Assembly: GCA_027593235.1 (NCBI GenBank)
Contig: JAQCIU010000064.1
Coordinates: forward strand, 1 to 10,559
Length of the DNA: 10,559 nucleotides
Source: Chloroflexota bacterium
GTDB taxonomy: Bacteria; Chloroflexota; Dehalococcoidia; UBA2979
Direction: 5' to 3'
The notes below the pieces were generated by a model. That model was not told where the DNA came from and searched no databases. It was given only the letters and a program-made list of their open reading frames with translations. Numbering within the stretch: the stretch's first letter is position 1; each line of letters begins with the position of its first letter. The position numbers and the translations under genes were made by a program. Below are positions 888 to 10,013 of this stretch, piece after piece.

Positions 888-2318
888 ATGACGATGGCGA
901 CCAGCCGCGACGTTGAACACGGCCTCGTCGGCGGCGTGTGCGCCGGCATTGCCTCCCGCTACCGCTACCCCATCCCCGCCGTGCGCGCCGCCACCGTCGC
1001 GCTCTCCGTCGCCACCGCTGGCCTCGGCGGCATCGCCTACCTCGCGCTCTGGCGCGCCCTGCCCTCCGGCAGCTCGCCGCGCGGCGCCCTGCTCACCACC
1101 ATCGAGGACGATGGCGCCCCAGCGCCCACCCCGTTCAGCGACACCATCGTCACCCTCGAGGCCCCAGCTACCACCGAGGCCCCAGCTACCAGCGAATCCA
1201 CCGAGGCCATCGAGTCAACCGAGACCCCCGCGCCAACCGAGACATCGACCTCCGCCGCCGACCCAATGCTCGCACCGGTCCGCTCCACCCAGGCCGCCGC
1301 CGGAACCCGCATCACCCCGCAGGCGAAGAGCGCCACCACCAGTCCTCCGAGCGTCCAATCGCTGTACGGCCCCGTCGCCCAGGACCTCCCGCTCGTCCGA
1401 GAGCAGATCGGTGCCGTCGCCCGCGGCGTCGGCTTCGACTTCCTCGAACGCATGCTCGAACAGCAGCTCGCCACCACCGGCAAGCTCATGCGCCCCGCCA
1501 TCGCCCTGCTCGCCGGCCGCCTCGGCGACTACAACCTCGACCGCATCGTCCCGCTCGCCGCCAGCGTCGAGCTGCTCCACACCGCCACCCTCGTCCACGA
1601 CGACGTCATCGACGAAGCCGACCAGCGTCGAGGTAACGACACCGCCAACTCCCTCTTCGGCAACTCCGCCAGCGTCATGCTCGGCGACTACATGTTCGCC
1701 AACTCCGCAGACCTCATCGCCCGCACCAACAACATCCAGGTCGTCCAGAACTTCGCCGCCACCCTCATGATGATCGTCCGCGGTGAACTCAACCAGGACG
1801 TCACCGTCTTCGAATACTCAGAAGACGTGCAGCGCTACCTCGACCGCATCATCGGCAAAACCGCCAGCCTCTTCGCCACCGCTGCCGAGAACGGCGCCCT
1901 CGTCTGCAACGCCCCTGCCGACCAGGTCGCCGCCATGCGCGAATACGGCATGAAGCTCGGCATCGCCTTCCAAATCGTCGACGACATCCTCGACTTCACC
2001 GGCGACCCCGCAGTCATGGGCAAACCCGCCGTCGGCTCAGACCTCCGAGGCGGCACCCTCACCCTCCCCGCCATCCTCTACATGCAGGCCGAACCCAACG
2101 ACAACCCCATCAAACGCGCCTTCGCCGGCCAACGCCGCCAGGCCAACCTCGACCGCGCCATCGCCGACATCCTCGCCGGCCCCTACATCACCGAAACCAT
2201 CGAAACCGCCCACCGCTTCGGCCGCGAAGCCCGCGAAGCGCTCTCCGCGCTCCCCCCCGGCGAAACCCGAGACACCCTCGCCGCCCTCGTCGACTACGTC
2301 CTCGATAGGGATTCGTAG
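888..2318 (+). CDS. PspC-like domain fused to a long-chain trans-polyprenyl diphosphate synthase (HepT/IspB-like)
   Basis: The C-terminal part has GKLMRP, FARM HDDVID (DDxxD at 1599-1613), RRG, GKTA, SARM FQIVDDILD (1980-1994) and GKPAVGSDL. The N-terminal about 58 aa match the PspC pattern (GVCAGIA...VR...hydrophobic stretch...YLALWRALP). GGGAG at 874-878 precedes the ATG at 888. There is no stop codon between the domains. Confidence 0.9.
   Translation: MTMATSRDVEHGLVGGVCAGIASRYRYPIPAVRAATVALSVATAGLGGIAYLALWRALPSGSSPRGALLTTIEDDGAPAPTPFSDTIVTLEAPATTEAPATSESTEAIESTETPAPTETSTSAADPMLAPVRSTQAAAGTRITPQAKSATTSPPSVQSLYGPVAQDLPLVREQIGAVARGVGFDFLERMLEQQLATTGKLMRPAIALLAGRLGDYNLDRIVPLAASVELLHTATLVHDDVIDEADQRRGNDTANSLFGNSASVMLGDYMFANSADLIARTNNIQVVQNFAATLMMIVRGELNQDVTVFEYSEDVQRYLDRIIGKTASLFATAAENGALVCNAPADQVAAMREYGMKLGIAFQIVDDILDFTGDPAVMGKPAVGSDLRGGTLTLPAILYMQAEPNDNPIKRAFAGQRRQANLDRAIADILAGPYITETIETAHRFGREAREALSALPPGETRDTLAALVDYVLDRDS
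1157..1250 (+). repeat. In-frame 18-bp tandem repeat decaying to 9-bp periodicity in the PspC-synthase linker
   Basis: CGAGGCCCCAGCTACCA occurs at 1157-1173 and 1175-1191, followed by degenerate units. It encodes EAPATT-EAPATS-ESTEAI-ESTETP-APTETS. Confidence 0.85.
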
Positions 2319-2321
2319 ACC

Positions 2322-2361
2322 AGCGAACTTCCTTTATCCTATTGCTACCCATCAGTTCGCT
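2322..2361. promoter_or_regulatory. 8-bp inverted repeat enclosing an AT-rich spacer with a -10-like hexamer, upstream of the STAND gene
   Basis: AGCGAACT (2322-2329) and AGTTCGCT (2354-2361) flank 24 nt containing TATCCT (2335-2340). A GAGG ribosome-binding-site-like motif at 2389-2392 lies 7 nt before ATG 2400. Confidence 0.4.
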
Positions 2362-2399
2362 TCGGCTTCGGGCACCTGTGTTTGCCTTGAGGTTTAACG

Positions 2400-5300
2400 A
2401 TGACAAGGCCTGGCGGTGTTGCTGACAAGTTGGGCAACGAATACGAGGGGCTGTGGACGGCCTCCGCACTGCTCGATGTCCTCGACGGTGAATTCGACGG
2501 ACTTGTGGTCGAGCCGATCTCCGAAGAAGGAGACGGCGTTGAATATTTACTGACGGGGTCATCAGCTCACGAGTACTACTCGATCAAGCGGAGGCGCTCG
2601 GATGGCCGCGAGTGGAGTCCCGCAGCACTCTTGAATGAGAAGGCGCTCAACGGGCGGAGCGTCATCGGGGACCTCTTCGCGAAGTTGGCGCTCAGTGACT
2701 CGACGTCCGCCGTGTTCGCCTACGGGACCAGTGCATCTCGTTTCCGCGAGATCACTGATCGGGCCAGAAACGCCCCAGACGATCAAACGTTCGAGAAGCT
2801 AATTGCGGGTAGCGATCAGCTATCAGCGGACTTTCACGATCGAATACAGCCCGCACTCGTGTTCGCGGGACTGGTGCCCCGCGATGCTTTAGGGCGCCTG
2901 CGTCTTAAGACCGCGGATGATGCAACGCTCCGGGCGAGCCTTGACCAGAGGATCCGCGCCCGCTTCCGCATGCGTGCCAGCACCAACATCGACTCGCTTT
3001 TGGTGCAGGCAGTGCTGGCCGATCTGATACTCGCCAACTTCGGACGGCGGATCACGGCTAATGAGATCTGGTCAGCTCTCGACGAACACGACATCGTTGC
3101 AAGAGCCTGGGGGCCGGGTGAAAGGGAGCGTATCGAGTCGATCACTGATGCCTTTCTGTCGTCCGTCGAGGCGCTGTCCATCAACGGAAACAGCATTCCG
3201 CGTACCGTAGCCCAGGACGTTAGCTCCGCGATCCTCGCCGAAGCAAAGTGGGTGATGATCGAGGGCGCTGCCGGCGCTGGCAAGAGCAACGTCCTCGCTC
3301 AAGTTGCGCGAGAACTGAAGCGACAGGGCGTCACGTGCCTCACCATCAGACTCGACACTGTTTCCGGGAGCGTGTCATCTCGGCGGCTCGGTGAAGCGAT
3401 CGGACTGCCTGATTCGCCAGCGTTGGTGCTGGGAGAAATCGAACTTGGGCGACCGGCGGTGCTCCTCATCGACCAAGTCGATGCGATCAGTGTTGTATCG
3501 GGCCGAAATCCGTCGCTTCAGGTCGCCGTAGACGAGATCCTATCCGAGGCTCAGCGGTACCCCCGATCTCCGGCTCGTTTTTGCCTCACGAACGTTTGAT
3601 CTGGAGAACGATCCACGACTGAGACGACTCGCAAACGACGCGGCACGCGTGACGCGTTTGCCAGTACCGCCGCTCTCGCGCGACGACGTCGCCGAAGCTT
3701 TACGAGCGGCAGGGCTCGATCCAGCTACGCTGACGGACCAACAGATTGAGATAATCCGCAATCCCTTGCATTTATACCTTCACCTTGAAGGCCCGCCGGG
3801 CAATACCAGCTTCGCCTCGGCGGGCGCCTTGTTCGACGCGTTCTGGGACGAGAAGCGCCGCCGAATTGACTCGACTGTGGGTGGGGGGGCTTTGCCGAGA
3901 GCGTCGCGAAGCTCAGCGAAACGCTGAGCCAACGGCGGACTCTAGAGGCCCCACTGCACTTGATGGATTCAATCACCGCGACGCTCGATGTCATCGCATC
4001 AGAATCCGTCGTCCTTCACAGCGATCACGGGGTTCGGTTCTTTCATGAGTCGTTCTTTGACTATGCATTCGCCCGCAGCTTCGCGGCGGCCGGCGAGGAT
4101 CCGATTGCGTGGCTGAAGAGCGGAACTCAGTCTCTTTTCCGACGGTCTCAGCTACGCCAAATCATCGCGTTCATGCGAGAACGGGACCGAGAACAGTACT
4201 ACCGAGCTCTAAGAGCAATATTCTCCGATCCCGAGATCCGGTTTCATCTCAAGAAGATGGTTCTCCAGTGGCTGTCAACCGTCGACGATCCAACGGGGGT
4301 CGAATGGGGCATCGTCGAGGACTGTACCGAGGTGCTGACACCGCATCATTGGAGCCTTGTCGGAGCCTCGACCGCCTGGTTTGACGTCGTGAATGGACTG
4401 GGCCGTCCGACCGCCTGGCTTGAGTCTGACAACCCTTCGGTCGTCGACGCGGCTGTCTCCGCAATATCGATGCCCTCGATCACCAAGAGACGACCGGAAG
4501 AGGTCGCCAAGATCTTCGAGGCGTTCGTCGGTCGAGGTCCGGATTGGGACGCTCGCCTAAGCTGGCTGATGGATCGCGTGGCATTACATGAGCCCTGCTT
4601 CGCCGACCTGTTCCAAACACTAACTGAGGTGGGCAGTCTCGATTCGAGAATCGCCCCCCAGACCCACGGTCTCGATTGGTGGTCGATGCTGTACTCGGCG
4701 GCGGCTATCGCTCCTCAATCGACCGCGGCAGCCATCGGCGCCTGGTTCGACCGCCGTCTTGCTTTGGGAGAAGCGGCTGATGAGGCAGACCCGTTTCACA
4801 GTCGCGACGGGAACGGTCTCGGCCAACACAGTCAGTGGAGCTTCGAAGTCATCCAGAGGTCGGCGGAAGGCGCCCCCCGGGAGTTTGCCGATGCCTTGTT
4901 CCCGAGGATCTCGTCCATGGCTACTGCGACGAACGGGGAAGGCTGGTTCCTCACCACGAACCCCGAACTTTCCGATCCCTTCGACCAGATCGTGGACGCA
5001 ACCGCGAGGGCGCTCGCGCGGCTCGCTGAGACAAGCCCAGCTGAGTTCCGCAACCTCGTGTCCACGTCGGTCCAGCATTCACCCCCGCCTACAGCCGCCC
5101 TATTGATGCGCGGCTGGGTCGGCAATGCTCAAGCGTTCGCCGAGGAGATCATCGAATTCGTCCTCAAGGACCCCACTGAACGACTGACCCTCGGTTACGA
5201 CATCGGTGGCAGCGGGTCCGACATCTCGCGCGCAGCCATCTGGGCTGCTACCGCCCATTGCTCTCGAGAAAGCCTGGATCGCCTTTCGGAAGCCCTGATC

Positions 5301-5900
5301 TATTTCACCCCGCCTTGGGAAGTCACCAACGGACGGTGGCGGGGGTCGACCGAACTGTCGCTGGCGTATGCGGTCGTTCCACAAAGAAGAACGGAAAAGC
5401 TGATAGCTCGAATTCAGGAACTTGAGCGGAAGTTCCCGAATCGCGCAGATGCGCCGCCACCGCCGGAACCGTCACCCGGCATCACCACCGTGATGGTCAG
5501 TTCGCCGCTGCCGGAGCAGGCGTACGAGCAGATGAGCGACGAACAGTGGCTCAACGCGATGCGACGCTACTCGAACGATTAGAGCTCAGGCGGTGGTGAG
5601 GAGCTCCGGGGTGGAGCCGTCGAGCTTTCGCGAGAATTTCAGCGAATCGTGACGACCAGTACTGATCGCTTCGTCTCACTAGGCGAGCTGATGGATGCTG
5701 AGCTCAATCACCACTACTTCGCCGCGCTCATCGATGGACTTGTGCCTATCGGACAGCCACGGGTCGGGACCCCGTCCGAGATCGTTCGGGTCCTCCGGCG
5801 GGCTCGATCTCTGTCCAAGCCGGAACTCTCGTCAGCCATCGCGCGAGGAATCGGTGCTGGCCGCGATGCCGCACGCCACAGTGCCGCAAAACGATCATGG
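2400..5900 (+). pseudogene. Interrupted nuclease-STAND NTPase-helical repeat gene (Avs/AVAST-like anti-phage protein)
   Basis: ORFs 2400-3599, 3649-3927, 3960-5582 and the first about 75 codons of 5649-7628 join into one gene. The N-terminus GGVADKLGNEYE..W...DGVEY...EYYSIKR resembles a PD-(D/E)xK nuclease. Walker A GAAGAGKS is at 3264-3287, Walker B VLLIDQVD at 3459-3482, and a winged-helix-type FFHESFFDYAFAR follows. Lesions: +1 in C5 at 3560-3564, -1 in G7 at 3883-3889, TAG at 5580-5582. The 3' boundary is approximate. Confidence 0.8.
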
Positions 5901-5966
5901 TTCAGCTCATCCCCCACCCAGGGATCCCGAACCCAAACCTCCCCCCTCCCCTCGATGCCAACTCTC

Positions 5967-6002
5967 TCGACACCCCCATCCGAGGTCCGCTACATTCTGC
6001 CG
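5967..6002 (+). promoter_or_regulatory. Sigma70-type promoter predicting a leaderless GMC transcript
   Basis: TCGACA (5967-5972, 5/6 match to TTGACA), 18-nt spacer, TACATT (5991-5996), then 6 nt to ATG 6003. No Shine-Dalgarno sequence is present. Confidence 0.65.
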
Positions 6003-7628
6003 ATGCCAAACGAGCCCGTAGGCGTCTTGATCATCGGTGCCGGTGCATCCGGCGGTGCCTTCGCCTGGAGCATCGCCGACGCCGGCATGTCCGTCCTCTG
6101 CCTCGAGCAGGGCCCGTGGATGCGGCAGTCCGACTACCCCACCAACACCATGGACTGGGAGTCCCGCGGCGCCACCGAGTTCTCCCCCAACCCCAACACC
6201 CGCATCACCGCGCGTGAGGGCACAACCGGGGGCCCCGCCGACTACCCAGTTAACGCCGACGGCACCCCGATCAAGCCCGTCATGTTCAACGCCGTCGGCG
6301 GCAGCACCATCCTCTGGGCCGCCCACTTCCCCAGGTTCACCCCGCGCGACTTCCGAGTCCGCACCGACGACGGCGTCGCCGACGACTGGCCCATCACCTA
6401 CGAAACCCTCGAACCCTTCTACGCCCTCAACGACCAGATGACCGGCGTCTCCGGCCTCGCCGGCGACCCCGCCTACCCGTACCACGAACCCCCGCTGCCA
6501 CCCCTGCCAATCGGCGCCACCGGCAACGCCCTCGCCCGAGGTTTTGAAAAGCTCGGCTGGCACTGGTGGCCCTCCGACAGCGCGATCATTTCGCAGAACT
6601 ACAACGGCCGCGAAGCCTGCATCAACCTCTCCTCCTGCGGCTCCGGCTGCACCCATGGGGCGAAGGCCAGCACCGACATCACCTACTGGCCGTACGCCCA
6701 GCGCAAAGGCGTCGAGCTCCGAACCGGCTGCCGCGTCCGCGAGATCACCGTCGGCGAGAACGGCATGGCCGACGGCGTCCGCTACTACGACGAGGACGGC
6801 GTCCTCCAGGAGCAAAAGGCCGAAATCGTCGTCGTCGCCTCCAATGGGATCGGCACGCCTCGGCTGCTGCTCAACTCCGCCAGCGAGCGGCACCCCGACG
6901 GCCTCGCCAACAGCAGCGGCCTCGTCGGCAAGAACCTGATGTTCCACCCCTACGCCCGCATCCGCGGCGTCTTCCCCGAACCGATGGAAGGCAAAGGCCC
7001 CGGCGGCTGCTCCATCTGGAGCCACGAGTTCTACGAGACCGACCGCTCCCGAGGCTTCGTCCGCGGCTACTCCTACGAGATGTCGCGCGGCGCCGGCCCC
7101 GCCGCCACCGCCGTCGGCGGCGCCGCCCGTGGCGACATCCCCTGGGGCCCCGGCCACCACGACGCCTTCGACGCCCTCCACAACCACACCGCCGGCATGG
7201 TCGGCATCACCGAAGACCTCCCTGACGAAGCCAACACCGTCACCCTCGACCCCGACCTGAAGGACAGCAGCGGCATCCCCGCCCCGAAGATCACCTACAC
7301 CCTCAGCGAGAACAGCCGCCGCCAGCTCGCCCACGCCGTCGAGCGCGGCGACGAAGTCCTCCGCGCCGCCGGAGCCACCGACACCTGGTTCGAATCCCCC
7401 ATCGAGCAGGCCGGCTGGCACCTGATGGGCACCGCCCGCATGGGCACCGACCCGAAGACCTCGGTGGTCAACGAGTGGGGGCGCTCCCACGACGTGAAGA
7501 ACCTCTTCATTATCGACGGCAGCATCTTCGTCACCTCGGCGGGTGTGAACCCCACCTCGACGATCCAGGCGCTCGCGCTCTACATCGCCGACTCGATCAA
7601 GCGGAACATCGGGAACCTGTTCGACTGA
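6003..7628 (+). CDS. GMC family FAD-dependent oxidoreductase (glucose/gluconate dehydrogenase flavoprotein-like large subunit)
   Basis: Starting at MPNEPVGVLIIGAGASGG places the Rossmann GxGxxG motif about 12 aa in, as usual. Other motifs: VGGSTILW, DWPITYETLEPFY, CINLSSCGSGC, GTPRLLLNS, VGKNLMFH, HLMGTARMG, GVNPTSTIQALA. The ORF-track start at 5649 is rejected. Confidence 0.93.
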   Translation: MPNEPVGVLIIGAGASGGAFAWSIADAGMSVLCLEQGPWMRQSDYPTNTMDWESRGATEFSPNPNTRITAREGTTGGPADYPVNADGTPIKPVMFNAVGGSTILWAAHFPRFTPRDFRVRTDDGVADDWPITYETLEPFYALNDQMTGVSGLAGDPAYPYHEPPLPPLPIGATGNALARGFEKLGWHWWPSDSAIISQNYNGREACINLSSCGSGCTHGAKASTDITYWPYAQRKGVELRTGCRVREITVGENGMADGVRYYDEDGVLQEQKAEIVVVASNGIGTPRLLLNSASERHPDGLANSSGLVGKNLMFHPYARIRGVFPEPMEGKGPGGCSIWSHEFYETDRSRGFVRGYSYEMSRGAGPAATAVGGAARGDIPWGPGHHDAFDALHNHTAGMVGITEDLPDEANTVTLDPDLKDSSGIPAPKITYTLSENSRRQLAHAVERGDEVLRAAGATDTWFESPIEQAGWHLMGTARMGTDPKTSVVNEWGRSHDVKNLFIIDGSIFVTSAGVNPTSTIQALALYIADSIKRNIGNLFD

Positions 7629-8096: not shown

Positions 8097-8918
8097 CTAG
8101 TCCGCTAGCTCCGAACTCGCCGGGACCGCCGGCACCTCGGGCAGCATCGCGGACACCACACGGCGCGACTCCGACACGAACGAGGCCGACTTCAGCTCCC
8201 GTTCCGCCTGGGCGCGCACGAACTCGTGCATCACCTGTTCCAGGCGGCCCGCCAGATCCGGATCGATGCGGATGCGGCCCGCCTCCTCGTAAGGCAGCGC
8301 CTGGAAGGCGCGGAGCACGCGCAGCACGCGCGGATCGAGGGCGATCGCTTCGGGGTGCTTGGTGAGCGCAGCACGGCTGACGACGCCGCCGCCTCGGTGG
8401 GTCCAGTAGGCGTCGTTGGCGTCGACGGGCGCGCCGGTTTCGAGGCAGTTCTCAAGCTCGGGTCGGAAGCCGGTGGCGGTGAGTAGGCCGAGTTCGTAGC
8501 GCCGGGTAACAAGCTGCACGCCGTCGCCGCGCGCGAGCCGGCGCAGCGACGCCTCGAGGAGTTCATAGACCTCGAGGGCGTCTTCGTGCTCGACGGTGAA
8601 GCGGTCGGCGAGCTCCAGCAGGTACATGGCGGTGCTGAGCTGCTCGAGGTCGCGGTGGAGCACGAGGAACGGCTCGACGGTCTGCGCCTGCGTGACGATG
8701 TCGAGCGACCGGCCGTGGGCGAGGACGATCTCGGAGAGCGTGAGCGGTTCGAGGTGGCCGGCCATTTTGCTGCGGGAGCGGAGGAGGCCCTTGGCGACGA
8801 CGTCGATCTTGCCTCGGTGGGGGGTGAGGAGGGTGATGATGCGATCGGCGTCACCGAGGCGGCGGTGTTTGAGAATGATGGCAGTGGTTTTGGTGACGCG
8901 GGGGATGCGGGATGGCAT
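8097..8918 (-). CDS. recO: DNA repair protein RecO
   Basis: Reads MPSRIPRVTKTTAIILKHRRLGDADRIITLLTPHRGKIDVVAKG...SKMAGHLEP, then ELGLLTATGFRPEL and C-terminal ELKS. The start is placed at the ATG at 8918 rather than 9050. Confidence 0.95.
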   Translation of the reverse strand: MPSRIPRVTKTTAIILKHRRLGDADRIITLLTPHRGKIDVVAKGLLRSRSKMAGHLEPLTLSEIVLAHGRSLDIVTQAQTVEPFLVLHRDLEQLSTAMYLLELADRFTVEHEDALEVYELLEASLRRLARGDGVQLVTRRYELGLLTATGFRPELENCLETGAPVDANDAYWTHRGGGVVSRAALTKHPEAIALDPRVLRVLRAFQALPYEEAGRIRIDPDLAGRLEQVMHEFVRAQAERELKSASFVSESRRVVSAMLPEVPAVPASSELAD

Positions 8919-8930
8919 TGGTTGAGGGTA
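8919..8930 (-). promoter_or_regulatory. -10-like element predicting a leaderless recO transcript
   Basis: The minus strand reads TACCCT-caacca-ATG, the same TANNNT + 6 nt geometry as the GMC gene. There is no Shine-Dalgarno at normal spacing and no clear -35. Confidence 0.45.
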
Positions 8931-9055
8931 GCGCCTTGGACTTCCTCCGGGATGGGGCACGGGACTCGGATTGATCGGGCTGGTTCGGGGCGTGATTGAG
9001 TGAGCGGCGGACGGTGGAGCGGTTGAGCGACCTCGGTGGTCGCGAACCAATCGGC

Positions 9056-9383: not shown

Positions 9384-10013
9384 CTAGACCTGCTGGCGGA
9401 ACTCGAGGGCGCGGCCGAGGGTGACGTCGTCGGCGTATTCGAGGTCAGCGCCGGCGGGGAGGCCGCGAGCGAGGCGCGTGACGGAGAGGCCTAGCGGCTG
9501 GAGCAAACGACCGAGGTACATGGACGTCGCTTCGCCCTCGAGGTTGGGGTTGGTGGCGACGATGACCTCGACGACCTCCGTATCGACGTCGCGGATGCGG
9601 GTCAGTAGTTCGGCGATCTTGAGCTCCTCGGGACCAATGCCGTCCGAGGGCGAGATGACGCCGTGGAGGACGTGGTAGAGGCCGCGGAAGCCGCCGGTGC
9701 GTTCGATCGCCTGGACATCGAGGGGTTCTTCGACGACGCAAATGATGGTGCGGTCGCGCGCTGTATCGAGGCAAATCCGGCACGGGTTGGTGTCGGTGAG
9801 GTTCTGGCAGCGCTGGCAGAGCACGATCGATCGCTTGACCTCGATGAGCGCCTCGGCGAGGTCGACGGCTTCTTCCTCCGGGGCGCGGAGGACGTGGTAA
9901 GCCAGGCGCTGTGCGCTCTTCGGGCCGATGCCCGGCAGCCGGTGGAATGCCTCGATGAGGCGATTGATGGGGGAAGCGGCGGCGCCACCGTGCTGGCCGT
10001 TGCGGTCGTTCAC
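9384..10013 (-). CDS. recR: Recombination mediator RecR
   Basis: HhH motif LPGIGPKSAQRLAYH, C4 zinc finger CQRC...CRIC, ICVVE, YHVLHG, Toprim EVIVATNPNLEGEAT, and C-terminal LEYADDVTL. GTG start. Confidence 0.97.
   Translation of the reverse strand: MNDRNGQHGGAAASPINRLIEAFHRLPGIGPKSAQRLAYHVLRAPEEEAVDLAEALIEVKRSIVLCQRCQNLTDTNPCRICLDTARDRTIICVVEEPLDVQAIERTGGFRGLYHVLHGVISPSDGIGPEELKIAELLTRIRDVDTEVVEVIVATNPNLEGEATSMYLGRLLQPLGLSVTRLARGLPAGADLEYADDVTLGRALEFRQQV

Follow-up and report, generated by a model that had tools for sequence, protein, structure and literature searches.

The closest described system to the gene considered here is Avs7 of Salmonella enterica (SeAvs7), which was characterized in 2026 by Lee et al. 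(bioRxiv 10.64898/2026.01.04.697583; Nature 2026, PMC13581612) and for which structures are available as PDB entries 9N00, 9N01 and 9YIX. In the sections of that work drawn on throughout this report, Avs7 is described as a Cap4 nuclease joined to a STAND NTPase and a bilobed TPR receptor, with the HK97-fold major capsid protein of tailed phages as its ligand and EF-Tu as an incorporated component; upon activation it forms an asymmetric tetramer that cuts double-stranded DNA. The residues of SeAvs7 given for ATP-Mg binding are T291, K292, D358 and R395; the C-lobe of the receptor and a conserved C-terminal helix are assigned a role in autoinhibition and its release, with the helix needed for both autoinhibition and clamping of the capsid protein, and the sensor is said to be common to Avs7 and Dsr1 (PMC13581612). 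The subject of this report is a stretch of Chloroflexota DNA (Dehalococcoidia, UBA2979), here called the window, which is the whole of a 10,559-bp contig (JAQCIU010000064.1, C14 in our numbering) of a metagenome-assembled genome (MAG; GCA_027593235.1, G000 in our numbering; 3.39 Mb in 78 contigs, 89.7% complete). Positions 2400-5867 of the window are, in all likelihood, what decay has left of an antiviral STAND gene that stood alone, belonged to the Avs7 family and had been acquired horizontally. The relic is real but is an ordinary pseudogene residing in a variable genomic slot.

A search with the open reading frame (ORF) at 3960-5579 among longer proteins yielded 141 relatives at E<=0.001, mostly of 1,500-1,512 aa, and a 1,510-aa homologue designated P0004 was used as the reference for piece-by-piece BLASTP comparison. 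Four pieces of the window, all on the forward strand, align with successive parts of this protein: piece 1 at 2400-3563 (388 codons; 1e-78, 39% identity to P0004 residues 1-387), piece 2 at 3565-3882 in frame +1 (106 codons; 2e-29, 48% identity to residues 387-495), piece 3 at 3891-5579 (563 codons; 1e-109, 39% identity to residues 503-1064) and piece 4 at 5583-5867 (95 codons; 3e-15, 43% identity to residues 1076-1162). Pieces 2 and 3 can also be delimited as 3562-3885 and 3885-5579. The lesions that separate the pieces are of different kinds. The first is a C5 homopolymer at 3560-3564 with one surplus C and a frame shift of +1, the switch falling at P0004 387/388; the frame of the ORF that begins at 2400 ends in SEAQRYP, and past the C5 run the next frame reads PDLRLVFASRTFDLENDPRLRRL. 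The second is a G7 homopolymer at 3883-3889 that is one G short (frame shift -1, switch at P0004 ~495/500), past which the first frame resumes as GGFAESVAKLSETLSQRR. The third is an in-frame TAG at 5580-5582, in a variable linker between the sensor's two lobes, followed in frame by SSGGGEELRGGAVELSREFQRIV, and the fourth is the end of homology itself at 5867, about residue 1160 of ~1506, beyond which the last ~345 codons, and with them most of the sensor C-lobe, are lost.

The same pattern of frames was obtained by tblastn with all 84 of the full-length homologues (1,470-1,580 aa), and the strict collinearity of the four pieces with single proteins of ~1,506 aa is far beyond chance. A first-pass annotation of this DNA, made from the sequence alone, had proposed one gene of about 1,150 codons hidden in four ORFs, whose frames could be joined by removing one C from the first run, adding one G to the second and reading through the TAG; the unity of the gene and all three junctions are borne out by the homologues, which place the fragments in one family and not in unrelated ones, and in collinear order throughout. 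Because homology ends at 5867, the figure of ~1,150 codons holds for what remains of the gene and fails for the gene as a whole, and the expectation that repair at three points would restore it did not survive the discovery of the fourth lesion, which leaves a dead relic. No match beyond 5867 of the window was obtained from any of the 84 full-length homologues, for which the aligned part ends at residues 1102-1225 of ~1,506; nor was the missing C-terminal part found elsewhere in the assembly, as all 205 tblastn matches of these homologues lie on the contig that forms the window. With an assembly that is only 89.7% complete, its absence from the cell is not proven. At columns that are at least 90% conserved in the family the window deviates in 19 of the 141 that it covers, mostly by conservative changes, as compared to 0-18 in 55 members that themselves helped to define those columns.

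What the pieces encode can be read from conserved residues and from predicted structure. Piece 1 comprises a Cap4-type PD-(D/E)xK nuclease domain (approximately aa 1-235), after which the STAND nucleotide-binding domain (NBD) begins, and retains the nuclease residues E16, E38 (2511-2513), E48 (2541-2543) and K63 (2586-2588) as well as a Walker A motif, GAGKS, with K295 at 3282-3284, and the Walker B aspartate, D358, at 3471-3473. The six columns G292, G294, K295, D358, Q359 and D361 are invariant in the family, and all are present in piece 1. Piece 2 carries the rest of the NTPase, including a conserved (C/S)R-x-FD arginine that a profile alignment places against the CRDFD motif of SeAvs7 and that, by residue count along this alignment, would correspond to R395 of the latter; the NTPase motifs of the window are thus divided between two frames, with Walker A and B in piece 1 and the arginine in piece 2. 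Piece 3 supplies the winged-helix portion with which the NTPase module ends, together with the helical sensor's N-lobe, and piece 4 supplies the beginning of the C-lobe. An AlphaFold2 model of piece 1 (388 aa; predicted local distance difference test, pLDDT, 91.5; predicted template modelling score, pTM, 0.84) matches the nuclease and NBD of Avs3 (8dgc_A) over residues 3-388 with a VIA Z of 15.4 and a Foldseek E=1.5e-6; for the N-terminal part the matches are HamA (Z 14.4), LmuA (13.0) and Cap4 (12.8 and 12.7), and for residues 238-388 the NBD of Avs4 (Z 11.3). These fold matches support the nuclease effector. Among the homologues, curated Pfam cut-offs were passed by Cap4_nuclease in P0101 (28.3 vs 26.2 bits) and by nSTAND1 and HEAT in P0067 (28.4 vs 27.1 and 27.5 vs 23.5, respectively), each in that one member and below the cut-off in the others; PADLOC LmuA also matches P0101, and NCBIfam gave nothing. 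The window pieces themselves gave only sub-threshold P-loop matches in Pfam, PADLOC and NCBIfam, and nothing for pieces 2-4.

The identity of the family emerges most clearly from a comparison of profiles with the sequences of solved structures. A profile built from 65 family sequences, when compared with all chain sequences of the PDB, matches 9n00_A, the 1,523-aa chain of apo SeAvs7, at E=1.7e-57. This alignment has two parts, profile 11-651 to 10-642 and, for the C-lobe, 1024-1369 to 1015-1375 (E 4.4e-16 for the second), and the next matches are no better than 9e-4, with Avs2 at 0.035. A second family profile finds the same chain at 1.1e-55, and for P0004 alone it is the sole match (5.5e-16). 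The likeness extends to overall build, in that the family (~1,506 aa) has a Cap4 nuclease, a STAND NTPase and a large, helical and probably bilobed sensor, the modules that make up SeAvs7; to the Walker A lysine and Walker B aspartate, which are K295 and D358 here and K292 and D358 in SeAvs7 as given by Lee et al.; and to the stand-alone nature of both genes, each with signs of horizontal transfer, again going by those sections. A model of the P0041 sensor (972 aa corresponding to P0004 534-1510; pLDDT 89.3) is an all-helical solenoid that follows two beta hairpins, with a low-confidence hinge or linker at residues 494-500. The family consensus has a conserved C-terminus with a fixed end in intact homologues, whereas the window copy is broken and lacks both a complete C-lobe and the conserved C-terminal helix. 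The relationship is a distant one, as the window pieces by themselves do not match SeAvs7. Counted along the alignment, the nuclease motif reads S-I-K here and Q-C-K in SeAvs7. Chloroflexota and other environmental phyla form the centre of the clade to which the relic belongs. The first-pass annotation had left the subtype open and perhaps new to the literature; with SeAvs7 as the sole significant relative of solved structure, the sequence comparisons point instead to Avs7, a subtype already described in the work of Lee et al., and the window would hold the relic of a member of that family rather than a working member.

Other known systems resemble the family over parts of its length. SeAvs3 (PDB 8DGC) is the best structural match of the N-terminal model of the window, in nuclease and NBD, but it is absent from the PDB sequence matches of the family profile at E<=1, and it differs in having terminase as its trigger, another sensor and another arrangement of its Cap4 tetramer, according to the same sections of Lee et al. 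(PMC13581612). Cap4 of CBASS, LmuA of Lamassu and HamA of Hachiman have the same nuclease fold (Z 12.7-14.4 over ~180-215 aligned residues) but couple it to SAVED sensors, SMC-like ATPases or helicases, where the present family has a solenoid sensor behind a STAND NTPase. PDC-M54A and Avs2 have a similar NTPase module, with the rest of the length unmatched. Membership among Avs1-4 was considered and rejected, as the homologues gave only partial Avs2 NTPase matches (1.2e-6 over ~125 residues) and no match to Avs1, Avs3 or Avs4. Membership in PDC-M54 was likewise rejected: the match to PDC-M54A (3e-12, ~300 of 1,621 model positions) is confined to the NTPase part, and the 80 family loci examined have no recurrent neighbour that could stand for a second gene, where the 'M' in the name presumably denotes a multi-gene candidate.

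A scan of one genome per species gave at least 453 confirmed loci of this family, and the hosts among the loci listed include Chloroflexota, Verrucomicrobiota (Akkermansia among them), Acidobacteriota, Cyanobacteria and Planctomycetota, as well as Sorangium, Rubrobacteraceae, Halomonas and Methanothrix archaea. Cap4-STAND receptors of this Avs7-like kind occur widely, both among uncultured Chloroflexota and across many further phyla. Locus statistics rest on 80 loci that were kept, of which 52 hold a single ORF of 1,480-1,575 aa, 21 are disrupted or abnormal and 7 are cut by a contig end. Decay looks frequent, with frame changes, early stops, insertions and internal deletions in 21 of the 73 assessable loci (L007-L086), some of them perhaps homopolymer assembly errors. 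The commonest cluster of neighbours (8 of the 80 loci) looks, from its sequence, like a tyrosine integrase. For the defence context, ORFs of at least 180 aa within 2.5 kb were considered and 104 of the 226 flanking ORFs so selected were scanned with PADLOC at E<=1e-12. Defence matches were obtained for 22 of these 104 ORFs, at 16 of 36 loci, and comprise restriction-modification systems of types I, IIG and III, a CBASS cyclase, SIR2 with HerA, Septu PtuAB, pAgo, TmtA and HmaC. The control, which consists of 36 random 5-kb windows from the genome of the relic itself and not from the genomes of the homologues, gave matches for 5 of 125 ORFs, spread over 5 of the 36 windows, and all five look like housekeeping paralogues (Fisher p = 6e-5 when ORFs are counted and 0.009 when loci are). 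The proposals of the first-pass annotation that this was a defence gene, that it stood alone, that it bore a nuclease effector and that behind its N-terminal effector came a STAND NTPase and then a sensor that is long and helical have all held up.

Several individual loci depart from the single-ORF form. At L035:6640-6790 and L059:12360-12500, both in MAGs of Rubrobacteraceae, the family gene takes the form of two overlapping ORFs that are split at the linker where the window has its TAG: the first, of ~1,056 aa, ends in SRYSEDRHGR followed by its stop, and the ATG of the second (MEGDLLKGGAH...), which encodes a C-lobe of ~440 aa, lies 10 nt upstream of that stop. Since the two MAGs have diverged and yet share this split, it may represent a natural variant composed of two genes. 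The same inter-lobe linker is the site of a 1.3-kb insertion in L069. Two copies of the family on one Dehalococcoidia chromosome (L017 and L018, both ~1,203 aa) have the same in-frame loss of residues ~712-992, inside the N-lobe of the sensor, and two further proteins, P0018 and P0090 (1,174 and 1,176 aa), end at about family residue 1160-1174, close to where homology ends in the window; P0018 lies on a 2.8-Mb contig and so is not cut by a contig end.

The foreign origin of the relic is suggested by its lower GC content, by the differing cargo of the slot in genomes of the same genus and by its rarity among relatives. The variable slot extends over 2319-5962, between genes for a polyprenyl synthetase and a GMC oxidoreductase, and GC is 0.58-0.62 over 2501-6000 as compared to 0.64-0.73 in both flanks. 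In another genome of the genus (G003) the left flank is 92% identical to the window and the right flank, from 5963 on, 86% identical by blastn, whereas the 3.6 kb between them are unrelated to the window by the same measure and encode an intact 1,144-aa KAP-family P-loop NTPase (L095:3404-6838) with PADLOC matches to QatA, PifA and PDC-S20. In G001 (L096) the corresponding slot is taken up by a pentapeptide-repeat ORF of 568 aa and another ORF, of 378 aa, that matches no family. Of 40 relatives, only G001, with a weak match, and G014, with two fragments, showed the Avs7-like family; the genome G014 is of the same family as that of the window. The G014 fragments (C11:517758-518243 and C4:34850-35161; L003 and L005) are 68-70% identical to P0004 residues 865-1026 and 1-109, and may represent another decayed copy. 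The ends of the island have no direct or inverted repeats other than short matches at chance level, no tRNA was found at its borders, and the window ORFs that were scanned gave no match to an integrase or transposase family. The 95 bp at 5868-5962, which join the relic to the conserved region around the GMC start, are unmatched, the blastn alignment to G003 resuming at 5963.

The assignment to Avs7 can be set against the view of the family as a Cap4-STAND-solenoid lineage in its own right, with only the nuclease and NTPase in common with Avs7 and with another sensor and another trigger. A number of results weigh against an Avs7 identity. The middle of the sensor (profile ~651-1024, the N-lobe) is left unaligned to SeAvs7. 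Single-sequence phmmer searches of the window pieces against the PDB gave no SeAvs7 match at E<=0.01, and for pieces 1 and 3 only chance-looking repeat, RecA and ArsA matches or none, so that the homology of the window to SeAvs7 holds through the family and not directly. The P0041 sensor model is matched by Foldseek to generic solenoids (CAND1, importins, CRM1), with Avs4 at rank 34, and its highest VIA Z, 15.2, is to HEAT/ARM proteins and falls within the stated background for helical repeats; the entries of the fold libraries run to 2026-04-08 and do not include 9N00, and the sensor was thus compared with other structures only. PADLOC (2023) has no whole-length model for the homologues and gave the partial NTPase matches described above, and no Dsr1 match was seen at E<=0.01 in the members scanned, even though Avs7 and Dsr1 are reported in the sections of Lee et al. 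drawn on here to have a common sensor (PMC13581612). Two named members of this clade are absent from the seven files of Lee et al. that were searched, where the accessions MYD91348, WP_283430785 and SMP41299 do not occur, a set that does not include their list of 3,272 Avs7 sequences, and the control for defence context was, as noted, taken from a single genome. What makes an independent lineage nonetheless unlikely is that the C-lobe, which is part of the sensor, does align to SeAvs7, that total lengths (~1,506 and 1,523 aa) and register agree, with offsets of no more than 10 residues over the first 650, and that the conserved C-terminus with its fixed end is also a feature of Avs7 in the same parts of Lee et al. 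(PMC13581612).

Quite different alternatives concern the condition of the locus rather than its ancestry, and these can be weighed with contigs from four public sequencing runs (X1-X4) that were compared with the window over 2300-6100. Both frameshifts lie in homopolymers (C5 and G7), which is what would be expected if the gene were intact in the cell and the two shifts were sequencing or assembly errors of the MAG. The contigs of X1 and X2 show no difference from the window and may be its source. In X3, from another study (2023), a 3,787-nt contig at depth 9.9 spans 2300-5946 with a single substitution (2945 C>A) and no gaps, and carries the same C5 and G7 runs; since it matches without gaps, both frameshifts and the TAG recur independently. 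A 344-nt contig of X4 (third study; depth 2.7) covers 3497-3841 without substitutions but with one base absent at 3560, which gives an in-frame C4, as predicted by the first-pass annotation; 11 of 30 bins were covered in X4, which takes in the first lesion, with the G run, the TAG and the 3' end outside. This C4 contig would favour an intact gene and may, at a depth of 2.7, itself be an error; if real, it implies that the first frameshift is recent and polymorphic. Neither the TAG nor the loss of ~345 codons is a homopolymer error, assembly errors are an unlikely source of the breaks, and an intact gene behind faulty sequence is extremely improbable. The C4/C5 polymorphism between runs could also be taken as a sign of phase variation, i.e., of a locus that is still used and is switched by slippage or recoding, and the apparent two-ORF split at the same linker in Rubrobacteraceae could be taken to mean that the pieces serve as separate subunits. 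Against continued use stand the 52 of 73 assessable related loci that are single ORFs of 1,480-1,575 aa, and a deleted C-lobe that is beyond repair by slippage. As for separate subunits, the stretch from the TAG to the conserved GGAxELS motif has no in-frame ATG, GTG or TTG, GTG 5649 being the first start in frame, and the ORF at 3649 starts 29 codons past the first frameshift and would be without the conserved arginine segment. A locus in present use, in either form, is highly improbable.

By analogy with SeAvs7, as it is described in the sections of Lee et al. used here, the intact ancestor of this relic would have been a single-protein receptor of ~1,506 aa, with a Cap4-type PD-(D/E)xK nuclease acting on double-stranded DNA, a STAND NTPase and a helical (TPR/HEAT-like) sensor of two lobes. 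In its resting state, such a protein would presumably have been ADP-bound and autoinhibited, with the C-lobe of the sensor restraining the NTPase and nuclease. A phage structural protein, which for SeAvs7 is newly made major capsid protein, might then have been clamped between the sensor lobes, whereupon ATP binding would have led to tetramerization, to cutting of DNA by the Cap4 domains and to abortion of the infection. For this clade, the capsid-protein trigger, any use of EF-Tu and the abortive outcome are all predicted from SeAvs7. The window copy cannot work in this manner: the +1 frameshift separates Walker A and B from the rest of the NTPase, the -1 frameshift cuts off the sensor, the TAG ends the N-lobe, and ~345 codons that make up most of the C-lobe are deleted.

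It is conceivable, albeit rather unlikely, that the order of decay records self-damage, in which deletion of the C-lobe came first, made the nuclease auto-active and toxic, and was quickly followed by silencing through frameshifts in homopolymers. This is speculation from the autoinhibitory role of the C-lobe in SeAvs7, as given in those sections, by which its loss might yield a toxic protein that selects for frameshifts. Were it true, the in-frame C4 allele in another population would be a trace of this recent history, the frequent decay within the family (21/73 loci) would reflect a cost of autoimmunity, and, taken together with the KAP NTPase of G003, the slot would be a lineage-specific hotspot of aquatic Dehalococcoidia in which immune receptors are swapped and disarmed. 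For annotation, the practical outcome is that four 'hypothetical' ORFs, together with a 659-aa ORF that fuses the tail of the relic to the GMC oxidoreductase, become one pseudogene of an Avs7-family receptor. The locus leaves the known working of such receptors unchanged and adds modestly to what is known of them, namely that they often decay and that, in the genus of the window, one such gene occupied a variable slot that in a sister species holds a different defence-like NTPase.

The remainder of the window consists of genes on either side of the relic. A gene for TatD (3-833) is followed on the forward strand by the left flank of the slot, a PspC-polyprenyl synthetase fusion at 888-2318 (Pfam 9.4e-62 and 4.2e-11). 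To the right of the relic, the GMC oxidoreductase gene occupies 5955-7628 on the forward strand (Pfam GMC_oxred_C 8.9e-27, GMC_oxred_N 6.2e-16) and is separated by a small ORF from the genes for RecO (8097-9050) and RecR (9384-10013), both on the minus strand. The reading frame of the relic is open through the junction into the GMC gene, which is why an ORF caller lists the 659-aa ORF at 5649-7628; relic tail and junction make up its first ~100 residues and the remainder is GMC oxidoreductase, for which the true start is probably ATG 5955 or ATG 6003. In X3, whose contig over the relic ends at 5946, a second contig at depth 62 covers window positions 6000-6100 with 8 mismatches and has unrelated sequence upstream of 6000, and it seems that a more abundant relative in this sample differs upstream of the GMC gene. 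The PspC-polyprenyl synthetase gene is a core gene that was present in all 13 of the genomes searched, the genome of the window among them. Those of its homologues that bear a name are from MAGs of Dehalococcoidia and Chloroflexi, by which the host is most likely a member of the Dehalococcoidia that has not been cultured. Its N-terminal PspC domain is joined to the polyprenyl synthetase by a repetitive linker rich in Thr, Pro, Glu and Ala, and a fusion of this kind is frequent in its nearest homologues, a good number of them from Dehalococcoidia.

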